Shown: piece after piece, positions 8,353-38,801 of the stretch
How positions within the stretch are numbered: the first letter of the stretch is position 1
Layout: every line of letters starts with the position of its first letter
Origin: Escherichia phage vB_EcoP-720R6
Reading direction: 5' to 3' (one strand)
Length of the DNA stretch: 46,068 nt
Sequence record: ON470605
Position numbers and translations under genes: made by a program
Notes under the pieces: generated by a model
The model's input: only the letters and a program-made list of their open reading frames with translations
Told to the model about the DNA's origin: nothing
Databases searched by the model: none

Positions 8353-11298
8353 TTAGTGCCTCCCTTCTATTAAGTCTAACCTAGCTTTTATTCTTTCTAT
8401 TTCTCTGCGCTGCCATGCTGCCTCGATATAGAATAAGAGATCAGGTCTGACTCCCCATCTAGATCCTGCTGGCGTTATTTCAACGCGCTCAATGATGTCT
8501 TCCATTACCATCACTGGATTATCATCCTCATCAACAATGATGCTCCCGTCATTATCAGTCAGCGGCATTTCCCTTTGGCCAGTAATGACGTCATCATATA
8601 CTGCGGGATAATCGTCATAGCAAAGAAAGGCATAGCGGCATGTTGTGCTTTCTTCTTCCATGAGTCCGTGAGAAATAAGAACATCACGAAGTTGCTGCGC
8701 GATTACACCATGATGTATCCTCGCCCCTTCTTCCCCCTTTATAGCGACAGCGTTCAGCCATTTATAAGCGATATACCTGACGTCACCCCAGGCATCCAGC
8801 AATGCTTCGTCAGGAGAGACCGGCTCTGTCTTTAATGTTCCGTCACTGGTAACCACAGGATTGGAGCCAAGATAAACTGTCGAGAACCTGTTTCCCGGAC
8901 CACCAAGAGCATTTACATTATCAAGATAAGGTTTAACATCTCCGTTCTCAAAAAGATGTTCGAGTGCGTTATATACCGCGCGACGTGGAGTACTGCTTCC
9001 GGAACCATGCAACGTTATCATTGCACCATCTGCTGAAGACGTTGTTTCACCGCCGCTAACGATTAATCTCTGAGCGGTAACATCATCAGACGGTACTTTC
9101 TTCGCAATAATGGCGTAATTACCCTCAAGTTTGACTTCCGCGCGAACTTGTCCTGATGTACCGGCATGGACAGTCAGTGACTGGACGGCAACATCATCTG
9201 TGAAATCAACGGGTACAGGAACCGTCCTCACGCCTGACGTCGACATAAAAGTAGGAAGCGTTCTGTTAGGAGTGGCTCCGTAGACAAAATCCCTTGAAAC
9301 AAATTCTTCCTGTTTAATTTTCACCCTGAAACAATACAAATCAGCCGGGTGACCATCGTGAACATAAGGATATTTTCTGTTGTTATCCCCTATGCTCCAT
9401 GGGTTTAGAAAGTCTTCCCCACCGAAAATGTAGTACAGCCAGTTGTCTTTGATACAAACTGAACCAACACCAACCGCAGAGTTAACTATTCCGCCCTGAT
9501 AAATCTGATCAGTAACATTAACCCACTCTACATTATCCAGACTCCACTCATTGACGTTAACTCTGGTCATAAATGTTCTTGGATAATTTCCTGCATAACG
9601 GTTATCAGGTTCTCCTCCTTCCCACTCACCAAATGCGCGCTCACTGCCAAAAATAATCAGCTCATCGCCAACTTTGGCAAAAGGAAGGTTTGAGTGATGA
9701 ACATTATTTGGGAAGCGAAGAGAATTCCATGATGTACCTAAATCAGAGCTTCTGTGCAATGAACTACCGGGTTGAGTACTTAATGTCCCCCTGGTCGTCA
9801 GATACAGAATGCCATCATAATATTTTACACATGGCTCAGATGCATTCGCCTCATATTCTACAGGTATGCGTCTGCGAACAAAGCTACCAGGAGAACCGAA
9901 AGCATCAGAGAAATAGAGTATCCCAAGCTCGCGTGGATCAATATCACCATTATGGTAGCCAACAGCAAAACTGTTATCGCTAATCGTCGCAAAACTGTGA
10001 ATCTCAGTAACAGGAGTGCTTCCGTCAACAAAAGAAGGAATAGTTCCAAGACTGGTTTTTCTCCATGGTGACGAGTGAAATGATGTACCAAAACTCCAGT
10101 ATCTACCCTCGTTATTCTGATCCACATCCTGGGTATTTTGCGTCGTAACTGTAAAAGTATTTTTATCAATGACAGTAGTCACCGTCATATTCCCGGTAAC
10201 ACCTGTAACACCAGAGTTTGAGAAGTTGACAAAATCACCAGCAAATAATCCGTGATCAGTAATGCGAATATAAGCGACTTGCTGATTTGCTGCTTTCGTT
10301 ATACCACCATAAACGCGAAGGCTGCGACTCATTGGGCGATCCCACAACTCTGCAACCTGCAGTTTATTTCCGCTCACGGTCCGCGTCTCAATTACAGCAA
10401 AAAGGCGATTTCTGACAACCCCCATACTCATGCAGTGATAGTTAACTGTGGGATAGTTTTCATGTAAATCTGTAAGCCATTCCGGCGTTGTCCAGGTCTT
10501 CCCGTCATCTCCTGAGCGAACCCATGCAACATGGAGGTTATTTACACCATGGCGGTCTCCAGCCATAAAAGGCGCATAGATGACATTGTCATATACAAAC
10601 GTTTTATCCTGCGTCCAGGCGTTGTACCACGGTGTATCTGTAATTTTAAATAACTCTCCTTGGATAAAATCTTCAGAAGCATAAAAAAGAGGCTGACCCG
10701 GTATTCTCTCAAATAAAAAACGAGCATTTTTAAATCGACTGACATCTGGAAGAGTTGATACTTTAAAAGTAAGCCCTCGCCCATCTATCTTTTCACCACC
10801 TGTTGCAACAGAAAGTAATTCTGATAGAGCTGATGTATCATCATGAACACCATCACCAATAGCCCCCCAACCTCTTACATCATAACTGTCTCTCCATCTT
10901 GCTATCTGAAGTTTTGGGTATTTATTCGCTCCATCTGGGTCTTCTAATTGCTGTCGTAACTGATCAGGATCATACTTCAGCACATTCGGAAAATAGAACT
11001 GCTGTGTACCATACGCATCATAAACAGCCATAGAATGGCCTTGCACGGTTACGAATTTGGCAATCTGTCCGTTATATACCGGATATCCAGCAGCGTTAAT
11101 GATTATTGGTTGCGAAACAGGAATGTGAGAACCGTCTTCGTTCTCTACATAAACCTGAATCTGGTTTTCAGGATTTACCGGGTCAGTGTCAATTTTACCG
11201 ATATAAATTTTGCCATTGGCTACGGCTTTAAAAGAACGCGCCATAGTGAAGAGTTGCGAAGGCATACTCACTACAACATTGGCTGTAATGTCTGTCAT
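8353..11298 (-). CDS. Tailspike: P22 gp9-like N-terminal head-binding domain, sialidase-like body with two Asp-boxes (probable endo-N-acetylneuraminidase), C-terminal intramolecular chaperone domain
   Basis: 981 aa; N-terminus [43 protein letters not shown] resembles P22 gp9; Asp-boxes SGDDGKTW and SSDLGTSW; C-terminus YAFLCYDDY...[30 protein letters not shown] resembles the self-cleaving chaperone domain of endosialidases. Confidence 0.7.
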
Positions 11299-11366
11299 TT
11301 AATTTGCTCCAGATACAAGGAATCGCCGCAGCATTGCCACAGTGATGCATTATTAATCAAACAAAG

Positions 11367-11381
11367 AGACCACTGTGGTCT
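11367..11381. promoter_or_regulatory. Palindrome AGACCAC-T-GTGGTCT, candidate Mnt operator
   Basis: Perfect 7-bp inverted arms around a central T, in the 146-bp spacer between the mnt start (11445, plus) and the tailspike start (11298, minus). Confidence 0.45.
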
Positions 11382-11444
11382 TATTGAGGATGCAACCAGC
11401 AGATAATAAGATGCCGATCCACTCACAAAAGCGAGGCATCAAGA

Positions 11445-11696
11445 ATGGGAAGAGATGACCCGCAATTTAATCTGCGGCTACCTTACGAATTAAAGGAAAA
11501 ACTAAAACAGCGAGCCAAATCCAATGGCCGCTCTCTTAATTCAGAATTAGTTCAGATAGTGACTGATGCTGTATCAAAGCCATCCAAAATTTCAGGCTAT
11601 CGAGACGATGCGGAACGCATCGCTGATGAGCAGTCCGAACTTGTTAAGAAGATGGTGTTTGATACGCTGAAGGATTTGTACAAAAAACCCACCTGA
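11445..11696 (+). CDS. mnt: Mnt-like ribbon-helix-helix repressor (Arc/MetJ family)
   Basis: 83 aa, MGRDDPQFNLRLPYELKEKLKQRAKSNGRSLNSELVQIVTDAV...SELVKKMVFDTLKDLYKKPT; RHH N-terminus and Mnt-like length/C-terminus; no arc or ant next to it. Confidence 0.8.
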   Translation: MGRDDPQFNLRLPYELKEKLKQRAKSNGRSLNSELVQIVTDAVSKPSKISGYRDDAERIADEQSELVKKMVFDTLKDLYKKPT

Positions 11697-11712
11697 TGGT
11701 GGGTTCCATTTA

Positions 11713-12132
11713 TTAGTCTTGCTTTGTGGACGGTATAAGTGATGCATTTGCCTCTTTTGGCTTCAAGGTATACATCCCACCATTAAATGGATCTACAGCA
11801 AGCCAACCAATTAACCCACCAAACACAAAGTTTCCACCAATATACCAACCATTAGCATTGGCTTTGATTGGCAGGGTAACTGGTTCGTACCCATCCTTCT
11901 CCATAGTGATCTGGTAGCTCTTTTTGCCAAAATAACTACCATCTGACTTGGCAAGAGTTACTCCTTGCGGGGTCTTACCTTGCGCAACAATCACGCCTGA
12001 TTCGTCTTTTACCTTAAAGCTCGCACCGGAAGGATTGCTGTTCACTTGCACAAGCTGTGTTTCGTCACCAACAATAGTTGCGCACCCAGATAACAATATA
12101 GCGCCAGCAACGACGCCGATAATCCTCTTCAT
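11713..12132 (-). CDS. Lipoprotein with PEGA-like domain and C-terminal glycine-rich hydrophobic segment (moron; function unknown)
   Basis: 139 aa; signal peptide plus lipobox MKRIIGVVAGAILLSGC; PEGA-like NSNPSGASFKVKD...GKTPQGVTL; GWYIGGNFVFGGLIGWLAV near C-terminus. Confidence 0.65.
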   Translation of the reverse strand: MKRIIGVVAGAILLSGCATIVGDETQLVQVNSNPSGASFKVKDESGVIVAQGKTPQGVTLAKSDGSYFGKKSYQITMEKDGYEPVTLPIKANANGWYIGGNFVFGGLIGWLAVDPFNGGMYTLKPKEANASLIPSTKQD

Positions 12133-12204
12133 ATTACTTTCCGTTTTGTTAGAATCAGAAAGATCTTAATAATAAAAAGTATTTTCGTGAAGATATTGTC
12201 GATT

Positions 12205-12217
12205 GAGTTAATAACTC
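12205..12217. promoter_or_regulatory. 13-bp palindrome GAGTTA-A-TAACTC in divergent promoter region of the two lipoprotein genes
   Basis: Seen directly at 12205-12217, between the minus-strand start at 12132 and the plus-strand start at 12267. Confidence 0.25.
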
Positions 12218-12266
12218 ATTTACACCCAACAGTGCCATGATGGCAAAGATAAGGAGAGTTAATCAT

Positions 12267-12752
12267 ATGAAAAAATCACTGTTAATTATCCCGCTTCTGC
12301 TGGCAGGGTGTGCAAAGGTTAGCGACTATCAGGCAAGTTGCGAACAACGCTATCCAAAGCTTAGCGATATGGCTAATTGCCTTGATGCTAGCGTGAAGAG
12401 CGACTCACGCATGGCATCAGCACCAACACCTAAGTTATATGTCCTTGCTGCGAAGATGCTCGGGCAAGGTGTCGATGATGGCAAGATAAGTGACGCGCAG
12501 GCAAGACTTGAGCTTCAGAATCTTTATGTTCAATTACAAAGCCAAGAACAAGCCCAACAAATAGCACAAAGCCAAGCATTCCAGCAGGCTTTATTGAATT
12601 ATCAGGCTGTAAACACAATGCAAGCTATCGAGCAAAAAGCGCGCCAGCCTGTTATAACTCAACCTTACCCAACACGCGTTGACACTTACACAAACTGCAA
12701 TTCAGGGTTTGGAAATACAGTCACATGCAACAGTAGCAGTAACATCAGATAA
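12267..12752 (+). CDS. Lipoprotein with Gln-rich coiled-coil-like region (moron; function unknown)
   Basis: ATG at 12267 with RBS AAGGAGAG; MKKSLLIIPLLLAGC lipobox, residue after Cys is Ala; Q-rich LELQNLYVQLQSQEQAQQIAQSQAFQQ; opposite orientation to surrounding late genes. Confidence 0.65.
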   Translation: MKKSLLIIPLLLAGCAKVSDYQASCEQRYPKLSDMANCLDASVKSDSRMASAPTPKLYVLAAKMLGQGVDDGKISDAQARLELQNLYVQLQSQEQAQQIAQSQAFQQALLNYQAVNTMQAIEQKARQPVITQPYPTRVDTYTNCNSGFGNTVTCNSSSNIR

Positions 12753-12842: not shown

Positions 12843-14840
12843 CTATTCTGACAACGCATCAGACTTAGCCCCCTGAGTAAGGGCGTTAATGGCCTTTTGC
12901 GCCTGCTGCATGGCTTTCTCAAACGCTGTTGATCCGCGTGGGGTGTTTGCCATTCGGAGCATTGCATTTCTGAATGGCTCGCTCTCATAGGCGCGAGTAA
13001 GAAGTCCGTAGCTTACTGCTGCGCCAGTTGTAGCCGGGTTCATTGCCGTCCCATACCCAATTATGAACGGGATAGTTTGCTGCCCTGTGGGTGTTGTTAC
13101 TGCCGCTTTTGCAGCCTGCTGCGTGGATTGCAGGTAGTTTTTTAATCCTTTCAGATAAGCAGCGTCCTGCCCCTTAAATGTGATGCCAGTCTGGTTTTGC
13201 AGGATGTTAAGCTGCCGAAGGAACTGGTCAGGGGATCCGCCAGATTTCTCCATCGCCTTTCCAATGATGCCATTGCGCATTTGCGTCCTGCCAACACGAC
13301 CAACTGAGTTATACAGAGTCTTAATTTCCGATTTGTTCTTGCTGAATAGCATGTTGTTGACAACTTCCGGCGTCAGGTCGCCTTTCATGAGAACATTCTT
13401 CAGCCTGGTATTCTTTAGTTTCGCCGCTTCGTCAGCGTAGACGGCATTGGCCTGCTGATATTTACGGAGAGTATCGTTGCCAAGATTCTGACCAATGGCA
13501 CCATTGATATCGTCGGTCATTGCCTTGTAAACGCGCTGAATGGCAGCATCGGAACGGTTTGGTAACACTGGTCGCTCACCTTTCACGTCCATTCTGAACT
13601 GGCTGCGCAGGTCGCTTAATTGCTTCAAATCCAGATTTACCGGACCATCAGGACCAGCATTGCGAACAAGTTCATCACGATATGATTGAAGTTTTGAAAT
13701 AGTCTCGTTATCAGCAACCTTACCAAGCTTCTGCAGGTTAGATATCTCAGTATCAATCTGCTGAATTGCTCGCGCAGGCTGGATATTGACTCCCGCCATT
13801 GCATTCTGAACCTGCTCAAGACGGTTCCCTGCAGCACGACGAATTCCTGATGTTTTCGCTTTAAGGCTGTCAATAACAACAGCTGGATCATACTCACCGA
13901 ATTTATCAGCAAATCTCTGCACCAACTGGCTTCTCGCTTCCTGTTGCGTTGCTCTCATTCCGCTTGTGCCAGCCAGGGGGATATTTTCCGCTGTCGTCTG
14001 CGCCATTTTCCCGACGCGGGAAGTAGGCTGTAACAGGTCTGTGGTGTGCAGAGGAACTCCTTCACGCTCTGCAAATCTGATAGCCTGCTGCGCTTCTGGC
14101 GCAATAGCACCACTAACGCCACGATAAGCAGCACCTAATCCACGTCCAGCAGCGTTAATAGCGCCGCCTGCCAGAACGCCAACACCTAAATCGGTGGCGA
14201 GGGCTTCCGCATCATCTTTCGCACTATTTGCAGCAAGTGACCCGACTGCGTTTTCAGCGAGAAGGCGAGTTGCACCCTGAGCGATTCTACCAGCGAGTGT
14301 TGGTGCCTGTGTTGCCGCTCTCTCAATGCCAGCAGGAGTGAGGTAAGGCAATGCCTCAGCAAATACCCTGCCCTCTGTAGTTTGTGGAGTCAGCGCGCCT
14401 TGCTGAAGGCCAAAGTCCTGCTCTAATCCCTGCGTTGTTACTCGTGGCGCTGGGTGATATGTCCCATCGCCAATTCCGAGTTTACCGCCAGCCCAAGCCG
14501 CCGCGCTTGTTACAGCATCGGCAACTGATGCAGGTATGTTTGCCACGTTCACGCCAGCCTGCACCAGTCCGCGACCAGTTTCTTTCACGGCTTCACCAAG
14601 ATCAGACATAAATCCACTTTGCTGTGGTTGTTGCTGTGCTACTGGTTGCTGTGTATCCACTGGCTGCACAGATGGCAATGGATAGGCAGCATAGAAAGCT
14701 TGCTTAGCCTGCTCTGCATTTTCTCCGGCTTGCGGGGCCACGACTTCATTGAAGTATTGCTCCTGAGCCTGCGCTTTTTGTTCTGGTGCTAACGCCTGAT
14801 ACTGTGGAGAGGCGATAACATCTTTCCATGCTTTAGCCAT
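12843..14840 (-). CDS. Ejection/injection protein, P22 gp16-like by position
   Basis: 665 aa, last and largest of the gene block after the needle gene; Gly/Ala/Gln-rich; assignment by synteny with P22 order 26-14-7-20-16. Confidence 0.6.
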   Translation of the reverse strand: MAKAWKDVIASPQYQALAPEQKAQAQEQYFNEVVAPQAGENAEQAKQAFYAAYPLPSVQPVDTQQPVAQQQPQQSGFMSDLGEAVKETGRGLVQAGVNVANIPASVADAVTSAAAWAGGKLGIGDGTYHPAPRVTTQGLEQDFGLQQGALTPQTTEGRVFAEALPYLTPAGIERAATQAPTLAGRIAQGATRLLAENAVGSLAANSAKDDAEALATDLGVGVLAGGAINAAGRGLGAAYRGVSGAIAPEAQQAIRFAEREGVPLHTTDLLQPTSRVGKMAQTTAENIPLAGTSGMRATQQEARSQLVQRFADKFGEYDPAVVIDSLKAKTSGIRRAAGNRLEQVQNAMAGVNIQPARAIQQIDTEISNLQKLGKVADNETISKLQSYRDELVRNAGPDGPVNLDLKQLSDLRSQFRMDVKGERPVLPNRSDAAIQRVYKAMTDDINGAIGQNLGNDTLRKYQQANAVYADEAAKLKNTRLKNVLMKGDLTPEVVNNMLFSKNKSEIKTLYNSVGRVGRTQMRNGIIGKAMEKSGGSPDQFLRQLNILQNQTGITFKGQDAAYLKGLKNYLQSTQQAAKAAVTTPTGQQTIPFIIGYGTAMNPATTGAAVSYGLLTRAYESEPFRNAMLRMANTPRGSTAFEKAMQQAQKAINALTQGAKSDALSE

Positions 14841-16141
14841 TAATCACCCCATAGTGAAGAAAAATTACTGCCAGTAGTAGGTTGTTGCGCTGGCGTATTC
14901 TGTACTGGCTCCTGATAATCAAACTGTTTTTTAACAGTGCTCAACTTGCTTTCAAGCTGATTTCTAATCTTTCCGATAGAGTCACGAAAAGCCTTTTCAC
15001 TCATTTTGGGGCTTAGGGCACCAACCGCATCGGATAATTTTTTACCCTCAGCATCTGAAAGAGCGCCCATACCCTTCAGGGACTGCACCATAGGAAGGAA
15101 TGTTTGAGCTTTAAAGGTGTCGAGCCTTGCTTCAAAGTTAGCCGCATCAGAGCCAGGGACTGTCGGAAACGCTGAGCGAATTCCTACTGCTTTTGAAAGG
15201 CCGGGGCTTTGCTCTATCTCGTTGAGAGAATCAAGCGCGGTGCTGAACGTATCAACTGCACCCTGAGCGGCGGCCTGCCTGTCAGCGCGGGCTATGTCAG
15301 CCTTTTGCCGAACATCTGCCTGTTTCTGTTTTAGCTCTTCAAGCTTTAACTGATTGCTTTCTCTGGCTATCTGTCTGTCCAGAGCCTTTTCTTGTAATTC
15401 TGCTCTTTGTATTTCGCGGGAAAGAGCAGCATTCTGTGCGCTGATGTTCTGTCCACGTATCTGGATGTCCTGACCACGTGCTGTTAGTGCTTCTCCAGCC
15501 TGATTGCTGCGGATTGTCTCTGCCAGCCTGCCTCGGTCAATTTCACGACCAGCCATCTTGTCCTGAACATTGAAGTAATCAATCGGACCAAGAGCAGCCA
15601 TTCCAAGGTGATCAACAAACTCACCAAATCCTGAAGGGTTCTGCTGATACATCTGAGCAACGCTGTTAGGGTCAACACCGACGCGAGTCAGTTCCTTGGC
15701 GTTGTTTTGCAGCCATGATTGCATTGCTTCTGGAGACGATGACGCAAGGCGTGCGCCAGCCGCTAAGGTGCCGATAGAATTACGCTGGTCTTCGTCTGCC
15801 CACTTCATACCAGACTGAATCTTCTCTAATTGACCAGGGTATTTGGTCATCAGATCTCGAACCTGCTGTCGATCACCGGACTGGATGGCTGCCGCATATT
15901 CTTTTTGGAATGCAGCATCCGCTTCCTGTTGCTTTGCGGCTTGATATGTTTGAGCGACACTACCCAGTCCCTGCAACGCCTGAAGGCCGATGTTATTGCG
16001 ACCTGAACGCTCCATTTCGTTGTTCTGGCGAATATAGGCCAACGCCTCACTTACATCACTTGCCTTTGGCGCATTTGAGTTTTGCCCACCGATACCAGCA
16101 AGAAAACCGCCTGAGTTGATTCCTTGTTGCCAAGTAGCCAT
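14840..16141 (-). CDS. Ejection protein, P22 gp20-like by position
   Basis: 433 aa, coiled-coil rich; synteny. Confidence 0.55.
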   Translation of the reverse strand: MATWQQGINSGGFLAGIGGQNSNAPKASDVSEALAYIRQNNEMERSGRNNIGLQALQGLGSVAQTYQAAKQQEADAAFQKEYAAAIQSGDRQQVRDLMTKYPGQLEKIQSGMKWADEDQRNSIGTLAAGARLASSSPEAMQSWLQNNAKELTRVGVDPNSVAQMYQQNPSGFGEFVDHLGMAALGPIDYFNVQDKMAGREIDRGRLAETIRSNQAGEALTARGQDIQIRGQNISAQNAALSREIQRAELQEKALDRQIARESNQLKLEELKQKQADVRQKADIARADRQAAAQGAVDTFSTALDSLNEIEQSPGLSKAVGIRSAFPTVPGSDAANFEARLDTFKAQTFLPMVQSLKGMGALSDAEGKKLSDAVGALSPKMSEKAFRDSIGKIRNQLESKLSTVKKQFDYQEPVQNTPAQQPTTGSNFSSLWGD

Positions 16142-32972: not shown

Positions 32973-34872
32973 TTAATACTCTGTCACGTTTTCCTGTCGC
33001 CACGCCTCGTCATATTCCGATTTCGGCATATTGGCGATGTAGCTATATGGCGATCCTGATTCAAGTTGCAGGAACTGGTGCGATTGCTCGTCAAGGAACA
33101 ACGGGACACCACCTTCCCAACCTTCACCGTTACGTTGTTTTTCAAGCATCAAAACAGATGCCGGAGATGCCAGTAGCTGTTCGTCCTTCTCTGACATCTT
33201 TTCACCACTCTGAACTCTCTGTAACGCTCTCTCGCGAGCCTTGTTACGCCAGATGATGAAAAGGTTGTCTGTCAGGTCTGTTATCGCTCCAGAGCCTTTT
33301 ACGTCCATTTTCCCGGTTGGTTTTTCTTCGCTGTCTCCTTTTCGCGAGTGAGTAACGAGAATGACGTGGGAGTTTGTTTTGTTTTTGANNNNNNNNNNNN
33401 NNNNNNNNGTCGCAAATCGAGTCAACAAACGCCTTCTGCCCGTTATAGTCATCGTCGCCTATGCCACATTTCATCAGGCTGTCGATGATGAATAACTGGA
33501 TGCCGTATCGGCGGCGAGCGTAGTCGAATATTTCGATCAGCCTGTCGGCTTTCGCCGTTCCGGTCAGGCCAAACACCCAAAGTCTTTCGTCATAAAATTT
33601 AAATGCAGAGTCAATTTCCAGCACTGGCGGCATCTTGCAGCACGTTGCCTGACGGGTAAGTCGCTTAAGGAGAATGCCTGGCTTCAGCTCAAGTGACGCG
33701 ATGCACGTCTTCACACCCTGACGCATTGCCTCAAGTGCCATATGCCCGACAACCTCCGTTTTTCCGTGACCGTTCACACCATTGACCAGCGTCAACTCGG
33801 CCTCACGGAACTGGAATTTATCTGCGAGAGATTCCCACGGTGGATTAAACAGATACTGCTGCTTGCCGTAGAAAGCGTTGATAGTGTCCTGGTAAAACTC
33901 TCGCGCGCTGTAGAGTTCTTCAGGATCGAAGTAGGATGCCGTGCCGATGTACTGCCAGATTTCATCCTCGGTAACACCGTTCATCAGGCATTCGTTGATG
34001 TCTTTGTACGGCAGAGTAACAAGACGGCAACGATGTTCACCGAGTCGGCTTGCGATTTCCCTTGCGGCTTCACGACCAACATCATCAACGTCCATCGAGA
34101 TGAATATTTCCTCAAACCTGTCGAGGTTGTGATACTCAAACTCAATCCACTGTTGCTTAGCGCCTTTCCCGCCACCAAACGGCACGGATAACGCCGAGAT
34201 GCCGTATTGCGCATAGCTCATACAATCAATTTCGCCTTCGCAAAGTACAACCGCCCTCACGCCAGCGTCCAGAGCCTGCCATCCGAACAGACAAGGTTCG
34301 CAATCACCTTCTGCCATAATGACTTTCTTCCCGTCCGGGCGCTCAGTGCTGATTCGCTTGACCTGCAACAACTCACCATCGCGTTTGTACGGAAGCACCA
34401 GTGCATCAAGTTCTCGTTCTCCATTCCACACCTTGCCGCTGACAACCTCGTAGCGCTTTACGATTTCTGGCGATATGCCACGCGATTGCAGGTACTCAAG
34501 ATGGGATTCTGTTCTGGTAACGTAGCGGGCGATTTTCTTGCGATCAGGTCTGGAGAATTTCTTCTCACGTTTGGCATCGAAATGGTGATCGTCATCCTTG
34601 ATACCGAGAAATGCTTTCGCTTCCTGCATAGCCTGATGCAGGTTAATTCCACGACATGCCATCCACAAATCAAGCATGTCACCGCCGTCTCCCTCAGCGA
34701 AATCAGCCCATTTTTTCTTGCCGCTAAGGTTGACCTTAAGGCTGTTTCCCTTGTCACCGTTGACGTTACCGGCAACCCACTCATGCCCCTCTTTCTTGCC
34801 GTTTGGCAACAGGTGCGGAGCCACCCTGTCAACCTGCGCCCAAAGCAGGTCGCTAAGTTCACTTGGCCTCAT
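32973..34872 (-). CDS. Replicative primase/helicase (toprim domain fused to DnaB-like helicase), interrupted by an assembly gap
   Basis: ORFs 33244..34872 and 32973..33452 both read into the N run; toprim VVLCEGEIDCMSYAQYG; helicase motifs VNGVNGHGKT, LFIIDSL, HVILVTHSRKGDSEE; the frame offset across the gap shows the N count is not the true length. Confidence 0.78.
33389..33408. other. Run of 20 ambiguous bases (assembly gap or masked bases)
   Basis: nnnnnnnnnnnnnnnnnnnn seen directly; the only ambiguous bases in the window. Confidence 0.99.

Positions 34873-37903: not shown

Positions 37904-38801
<898 letters not shown>

Follow-up and report, generated by a model that had tools for sequence, protein, structure and literature searches.

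The mnt region at positions 11367-11696 of the 46,068-nucleotide stretch analysed here (the window; Escherichia phage vB_EcoP-720R6, ON470605) is best read as a reduced secondary immunity (immI) region, in which mnt, its operator and the promoter Pmnt are left and arc, ant and a working Pant promoter are gone; we place the probability of this reading slightly above one half, at roughly 0.55. Judged from its sequence, the mnt-operator-Pmnt cassette is real and functional-looking. The earlier note had implied that the arrangement is rare, which did not survive comparison: the arc- and ant-less mnt arrangement, even this exact allele, is already described and common. A distant-mode search across 50,697 phage records showed mnt annotated as the immediate neighbour of the tailspike gene in Gally, ST160, SE1, SPN9CC, L, ST64T, ST104 and others, and the whole mnt-plus-spacer segment was present in 112 of 5,426 complete E. 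coli genomes (about 2%), LF82 included. In about 400 more E. coli genomes the match was confined to the initial 34-53 bases of the query (mostly about 47); these matches are tailspike leader without mnt. The mnt-only layout is also discussed in the epsilon34 and phage L genome papers (PMC2629481, PMC8022706), the former of which names the slot the "ant moron" and describes ST64T, ST104 and Para1 as having only mnt and one unknown gene.

The immI slot and its mnt gene

The window was colinear with the chromosome of E. coli Ecol_AZ159 and contained a complete P22-like (Lederbergvirus) prophage inserted between ybhB and ybhC, the lambda attB of E. coli. An ISEc52 copy beside the N antiterminator gene of Ecol_AZ159 was absent from the window (about position 38297), and a run of 20 N occupied 33389-33408, in the early region of the prophage. 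The late operon is on the minus strand, with the homologues of P22 gene 20 (14840-16141) and gene 16 (12843-14840), and the tailspike gene last (8353-11298; 981 aa, in which endosialidase domains come after a P22 head-binding domain). The interval from the gene 16 homologue to the tailspike gene held a 171-aa gene on the plus strand (12237-12752; RefSeq start 12267), a 139-aa gene on the minus strand (11713-12132) and, on the plus strand, the 83-aa reading frame of mnt (11445-11696), which is the location of immI in P22, inside the late operon. Both larger genes were predicted to encode lipoproteins (lipoboxes LAGC and LSGC, respectively) and belong to the same ant moron as mnt; they fell into PHROGs of unknown function, with a weak match to the PEGA domain. 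The G+C content of the mnt/moron region was 0.42-0.44, against 0.50-0.56 in the neighbouring late genes. A hairpin terminator effective on both strands was predicted between mnt and the 139-aa gene (11686-11705); its minus-strand version is strong, with a 9-bp G+C stem followed by U6, and sets mnt and the tailspike gene apart from transcription of the late operon and the moron (the 139-aa gene). An Rfam scan of 11000-12400 gave nothing near threshold.

The product of mnt (MGRDDPQFNLRLPYELKEKLKQRAKSNGRSLNSELVQIVTDAVSKPSKISGYRDDAERIADEQSELVKKMVFDTLKDLYKKPT) had been taken in the earlier note for a ribbon-helix-helix (RHH) protein with Mnt-like sequence, and the domain and structure searches agreed. 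Pfam placed PF03869 (Arc, E 2.8e-22) and, at residues 53-80, PF11423 (Repressor_Mnt, E 2.2e-18) on the protein; the N-terminal RHH domain was matched by the solved Mnt structure 1MNT (E 2.8e-34 over residues 3-77), and the C-terminal helix by the 1QEY tetramerisation helix (E 3.1e-12, 28 of 31 residues identical). In the alignment with P22 Mnt and the P22 mnt operator that had been proposed as a check, the proteins were 76% identical and the operator fell at the homologous position. The beta-strand operator contacts of P22 Mnt are reportedly Arg2, His6, Asn8 and Arg10 (Knight and Sauer). Against P22 Mnt, the window protein retained R2, N8 and R10 and had Gln for His at residue 6, and the operator changed in step. 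P22 Arc shares the RHH fold, and its residues 8-13 are identical to the Mnt strand PQFNLR; unlike Arc, the window protein carries the N-terminal RDD specific to Mnt and, at its C-terminus, the tetramerisation helix, and the window operator is of the Mnt type, without Arc TAGA boxes. In a comparison with P22 mnt, codons 51-83 gave dN 0.04 and dS 0.36, and codons 1-50 gave dN 0.28 with dS saturated, a contrast that suggests either recombination within mnt or differing constraints on the two domains. The label "partition protein ATPase", attached to Mnt in PHROGs (phrog_795) and in many RefSeq phage records, is a propagated misannotation for an 83-aa RHH repressor.

The absence of arc and ant, also claimed in the earlier note, held up. 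A tblastn search of the 46-kb window with P22 Arc found only mnt itself, the same search with P22 Ant found nothing below E = 6, and the RefSeq annotation of the colinear E. coli chromosome lists no antirepressor. The P22 immI region (mnt, arc, ant, sar; Pmnt/Pant, Omnt, Oarc) occupies the same slot, from the gene 16 homologue to the tailspike gene, and has in common with the window an mnt gene transcribed against the late operon, the Mnt fold with its tetramerisation helix, a palindromic operator immediately upstream of the Pmnt -35 at equal spacing, and the tailspike leader with its hairpin. In contrast to P22, the window has no arc or ant and neither the Arc operator nor the ant terminator; its hexamers at Pant are eroded, its Mnt carries Gln in place of His at residue 6, and the operator half-sites differ at +/-5 and +/-7. 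Origin by immI deletion, with loss of arc and ant, is supported. A full immI region with a Gln6 Mnt was found on one metagenomic contig (L095), with the operator GAGACCACCGTGGTCT, arc and ant; the orphans would thus descend from an immI region of a distinct (Gln6) specificity class and not from that of P22 itself.

The closest described counterparts are the mnt-only morons of L, ST64T, ST104 and Para1 (Villafane et al. 2008, PMC2629481; Zaworski et al. 2020, PMC8022706), in which mnt lies beside the tailspike gene, and the prophage Gally of E. coli LF82 (OV696608; Misson et al. 2023, PMC9928086). Like the window, the L type has a Gln6 Mnt, the operator AAGACCAC-N-GTGGTCTT and the Pmnt layout, without arc and ant. 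Its spacer of 135 bp lacks 11 bp on the left side of the operator, its companion moron gene is orf62 instead of the two lipoprotein genes, and its tailspike is an endorhamnosidase and not an endosialidase. The Mnt of L and ST64T was 70% identical to that of the window, and other Salmonella orphans (the ST160 class) were 92-93% identical. Gally Mnt was 100% identical; a 601-bp region was 98.2% identical, with the same 146-bp spacer, operator and two lipoprotein genes, and the differences lay in the C-terminal part of the tailspike (a 2.4-kb gene versus the endosialidase) and in the integration site. Gally is the only member of the group with transcriptome data and an mnt knockout.

The slot also carries other contents. 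GPEC172, a sister endosialidase prophage, holds a different RHH gene with arc and ant in the same slot, and therefore the content of the slot is interchangeable. The CUS-3-like loci L069-L072 (IMG/VR) have a His6 Mnt behind a second, unrelated RHH gene and an ant of 56% identity, without arc; this other RHH gene is the one that GPEC172 (L215) carries with arc and ant. No P22-type operator was found within 3 kb at these loci, and their ant control must differ from that of P22.

Operator, Pmnt and the recognition pair

The predicted homologue of the Mnt operator is the perfect palindrome AGACCAC-T-GTGGTCT at 11367-11381 (AGACCACTGTGGTCT), with the conserved core GACCAC-N-GTGGTC at 11368-11380. 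It lies, as the earlier note had described, within the 146-bp intergenic spacer (11299-11444) between mnt and the divergent endosialidase tailspike gene, 63 bp from the mnt ATG and 68 bp from the tailspike ATG. A perfect 7-1-7 palindrome alone is not rare and not beyond chance, as the window contained seven free of N against 2.6 expected from shuffles. This palindrome is meaningful because it is homologous to the P22 mnt operator in position and sequence, as had been proposed, and because it is conserved in 35 distinct spacers. In P22, the operator AGGTCCAC-C-GTGGACCT lies directly upstream of the Pmnt -35 and, on the other strand, at the Pant start; the window palindrome had the same position relative to Pmnt as the P22 form AGGTCCAC-N-GTGGACCT. 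A symmetric palindrome beside the gene's own promoter, at the P22-homologous position, is the predicted Mnt binding site. Among the 35 distinct spacers (68 related loci), the GACCAC/GTGGTC half-sites were intact in 29, and the remaining six (L012, L025, L034, L042, L054 and L063) carried a single half-site point mutation. All four bases occurred at the operator centre, a free variation that would be as expected of an uncontacted base, and the spacer sequence to the left of the operator was highly variable. No second operator copy was found in the 46-kb window, even with two mismatches, where a single match did not exceed the shuffle level; therefore the prophage offers no other obvious cis target for Mnt. 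We also considered the palindrome as a conserved minus-strand terminator and rejected it, since it forms a stem of no more than 6 bp (-9.3 kcal/mol, z -1.6), and Salmonella-type spacers have no T-rich tail.

The Pmnt homologue (11384-11412, plus strand) consists of a -35 hexamer TTGAGG (11384-11389) and a -10 hexamer TAAGAT (11407-11412) separated by 17 bp, with a predicted start near 11419 and the Shine-Dalgarno sequence GAGG at 11433-11436. Its positional homologue is P22 Pmnt (TTGAGA-17-TATCAT), and the distance from palindrome to promoter is the same in both. With 8 of 12 consensus positions, Pmnt was the best plus-strand candidate in the spacer by hexamer scan, below the 9/12 threshold of the generic scan.

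The substitution at residue 6 and the operator sequence varied together. Among 80 IMG/VR loci with Mnt relatives, 65 had Gln6 (N-terminus MGRDDPQFNLR) and 15 had His6 (MARDDPHFNFRM). Both arc and ant were absent from all 65 Gln6 loci; ant was present at all 15 His6 loci, together with arc at 11. The mnt-only moron layout, with mnt adjacent and divergent to the tailspike gene and no arc or ant, characterized 65/65 Gln6 loci and was also that of the window, which combines a Gln6 Mnt, the GACCAC-N-GTGGTC operator and the Pmnt layout. The half-site is GACCAC here versus GTCCAC in P22, a change at +/-5 from the centre, which we take to be position 16 of the Mnt operator. An A/T at +/-5 accompanied Gln6 in 92 locus hits and a T/A accompanied His6 in 14, with no mixed cases. 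These results suggested that the window Mnt belongs to a specificity class other than that of P22, with Gln6 paired with GACCAC half-sites. Secondary mentions tie residue 6 to operator positions 16 and 17: this residue reportedly governs preference chiefly at two neighbouring positions of the operator (PMC1184061), and the Stormo laboratory varied positions 16 and 17 (PMC1131891).

Two further contigs carried the pair in another setting. At L121 (7687-7750) and L124 (8167-8250), three tandem GACCAC-N-GTGG repeats precede a 146-aa RHH gene, and the third repeat overlaps its GTG start; the protein has the Mnt-like strand REDPQFKLRMP and an unrelated C-terminal domain, and would be an independent user of the Gln6/GACCAC recognition pair. 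The scan of species-representative genomes gave nine loci, three of them true Mnt relatives, which were used as outgroups. Phlomobacter Mnt has Gln6 and a different operator, ATATCAC-C-GTGATAT, with A at -5 as well; Pluralibacter and Pectobacterium Mnt have His6 and retain GTCCAC. The operator-pattern scan of viral contigs is no census: 30 of 120 were relevant among the matches listed, and the rest were mostly chance.

Transcription toward the tailspike gene

The earlier note had proposed that Mnt controls a spacer promoter directed at the tailspike gene, and the sequence of the spacer did not support this. A strong Pant overlapped by the Mnt operator, as in immI, was not found in the window. 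The Pant homologue (11389-11417, minus strand; -35 TCGGCA at 11417-11412, 17 bp, -10 TGCATC at 11394-11389) is eroded, matching consensus at 6 of 12 positions and lacking the key A2 and T6 of the -10, versus 11 of 12 for P22 Pant (TTGACA-17-TATATT), between whose hexamers the Arc operator lies. Unlike Pmnt, which was kept among the orphan loci, the Pant-homologous -10 was not conserved and read TGCATC, TATATC, TGTATC, TACATC or TTCATC. A generic sigma-70 scan of the spacer at a threshold of 9/12 found no site on either strand, and our own hexamer scan found nothing convincing toward the tailspike gene. The best tailspike-directed candidate was the -10-like hexamer AATAAT at 11354-11349, which scored 8/12; its -35, with 3/6 matches, would lie inside the operator at a spacing of 19 bp. 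The candidate was present in E. coli-type spacers and missing from Salmonella-type ones.

A hairpin is conserved in the tailspike mRNA leader. It lies at 11326-11342 on the minus strand (CUGUGGC-AAU-GCUGCGG; 7 bp, 3-nt loop), 28-44 nt upstream of the tailspike ATG, and its P22 counterpart is at about 1594-1610 of locus L002. Over 16 distinct leaders, P22 included, 96% of cells were paired, and eight extra pair types were seen, with compensatory and G-U changes that fit the tailspike sense strand alone. The hairpin is shared by P22 and orphan loci as far as the distant ones, and might stabilise the mRNA or mark a site of processing.

Transcript levels have been reported for the Gally lysogen (PMC9928086). 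Late genes were at background in all conditions. The 139-aa homologue was strongly transcribed and the 171-aa homologue was transcribed; in LB, the lipoprotein homologues stood at about 4.5-fold and 3.3-fold, just under the paper's 5-fold moron cutoff, and mnt RNA was at background. Inside macrophages, RNA of both lipoprotein genes increased together with that of mnt (40-fold), the tailspike gene (21-fold) and the downstream gene, and the lipoprotein homologues were by far the top-transcribed genes of the late/moron region (PMC9928086). Tailspike RNA was about 20-fold below that of the same-strand 139-aa homologue, as would be expected of read-through. Deletion of mnt left macrophage survival like that of the wild type (PMC9928086). 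The Gally pattern fits leakage through the terminator better than an Mnt-repressed promoter, and an unconventional tailspike-sense start in the spacer is conceivable. H-NS-type silencing of the AT-rich island as the cause of the macrophage co-induction is suggestive only.

The most likely working picture has Mnt at the palindrome upstream of its own start and the tailspike gene expressed from upstream transcription. The Mnt tetramer would bind the palindrome, whose centre would lie about 45 bp upstream of the Pmnt start, exactly at the former Pant start point; binding would tune mnt expression and occlude residual leftward initiation. During lytic growth, the tailspike gene would be transcribed mainly by antiterminated late-operon polymerases coming from upstream, and in the lysogen by leakage from the moron gene through the 11686-11705 terminator.

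Direct Mnt control of a tailspike promoter is poorly supported. As an alternative to the working picture, it would have Mnt repress a spacer promoter into the tailspike gene, keeping the endosialidase off in the lysogen and allowing an early-infection burst before Mnt accumulates. The operator does sit at the P22 Pant start point with nothing now between it and the tailspike leader, Gally transcribes its tailspike gene in the lysogen while late genes are silent, and the epsilon34 paper raises, as speculation, an effect of Mnt and Arc on transcription that enters the tailspike gene. In the orphan loci, mnt always adjoins the tailspike start, down to 60% protein identity, but ancestral gene order alone would give this adjacency. 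The AATAAT hexamer, with its -35 inside the operator, would offer a promoter in E. coli-type spacers; however, its score, its spacing and its absence from Salmonella-type spacers count against it, as do the eroded Pant and the empty generic scan. Moreover, tailspike RNA rose in Gally along with mnt, the opposite of simple repression. We regard direct control as unlikely.

Maintenance of the orphan repressor

Between E. coli-type and Salmonella-type orphan genes, mnt had a dN/dS of 0.08-0.11 at a dS of 0.41-0.48 (about 0.44). The exact Mnt protein of the window was encoded by nine distinct nucleotide sequences, and the layout of mnt beside the tailspike gene persisted to 60-72% protein identity (L163, L179). 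Two loci (L063 and L068) had a nonsense codon in mnt, and a minority of copies, with a nonsense mnt or a mutated half-site, are decaying. Overall, with dN/dS about 0.1 and conserved operator half-sites, the mnt-operator module is maintained by selection and not decaying. Of the suggestion that the operator is a relic of an immI deletion, the deletion origin thus stood, in view of the layout and of L095 with its arc and ant, and the decaying relic did not, in view of the same dN/dS and half-sites.

At some loci, the tailspike gene next to the module has been exchanged. At Gln6 loci, the tailspike start was 135-148 bp away, and in a subset about 425 bp (L022, L033, L050-L054, L059, L063, L068), with about 280 extra bp past the leader. 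At the latter, the mnt-operator-leader block ended in the old tailspike's first codons (ATGACAGATATT), followed by an AT-rich insert and then a different tailspike starting MPNI or MPDI, a junction that would mark a tailspike swap exactly at the start codon.

Since selection retains the module, some target must remain for Mnt. Autoregulation alone would not be selected for, and a target is therefore missing from the best explanation. It is conceivable, though unlikely, that Mnt and its operator form a natural co-evolved switch (His6 to Gln6, with T:A to A:T at +/-5) retained because it still acts, either in trans immunity or in gating tailspike (endosialidase) transcription in the prophage state.

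In trans immunity, the orphan Mnt would repress the antirepressor promoter of superinfecting relatives of the same operator class and so block antirepressor-mediated induction, a role that would explain purifying selection in a prophage with no obvious cis target. That P22 Mnt acts in trans on Pant is established genetics, summarised in PMC11016777, and a fitting opponent exists in L095, where a Gln6 Mnt and the same operator accompany arc and ant. However, L095 was the only such ant-bearing locus among the matches listed, no close relative of it was found among cultured phages in the 50,697-record collection, and the background level of mnt RNA in LB-grown Gally lysogens fits this role poorly. 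Such immunity is quite unlikely to be the reason for retention. That mnt and the palindrome are functionless leftovers of the immI deletion, not yet lost, is very unlikely, since this option, left open in the phage L paper and favoured by the lack of a survival phenotype of the Gally mnt deletion in macrophages and by the loci with nonsense codons or mutated half-sites, does not sit with the low dN/dS over a dS of about 0.44, with nine synonymous-only variants of one protein, with half-sites conserved while the uncontacted centre base varies freely, or with an arrangement that persists down to 60% protein identity.

The practical weight of the reduced immI region is small, as the region is one of the recorded forms of the P22 ant moron, carried by many Salmonella phages and by about 2% of complete E. 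coli genomes. It poses the puzzle of a repressor whose only known target gene was deleted and which is nevertheless under purifying selection, and its Gln6/GACCAC pair would lend itself well, as an example from nature, to work on the long-studied recognition code of Mnt. Either the reason for retention or the recognition-code case would be a modest addition to the biology of the P22 family.
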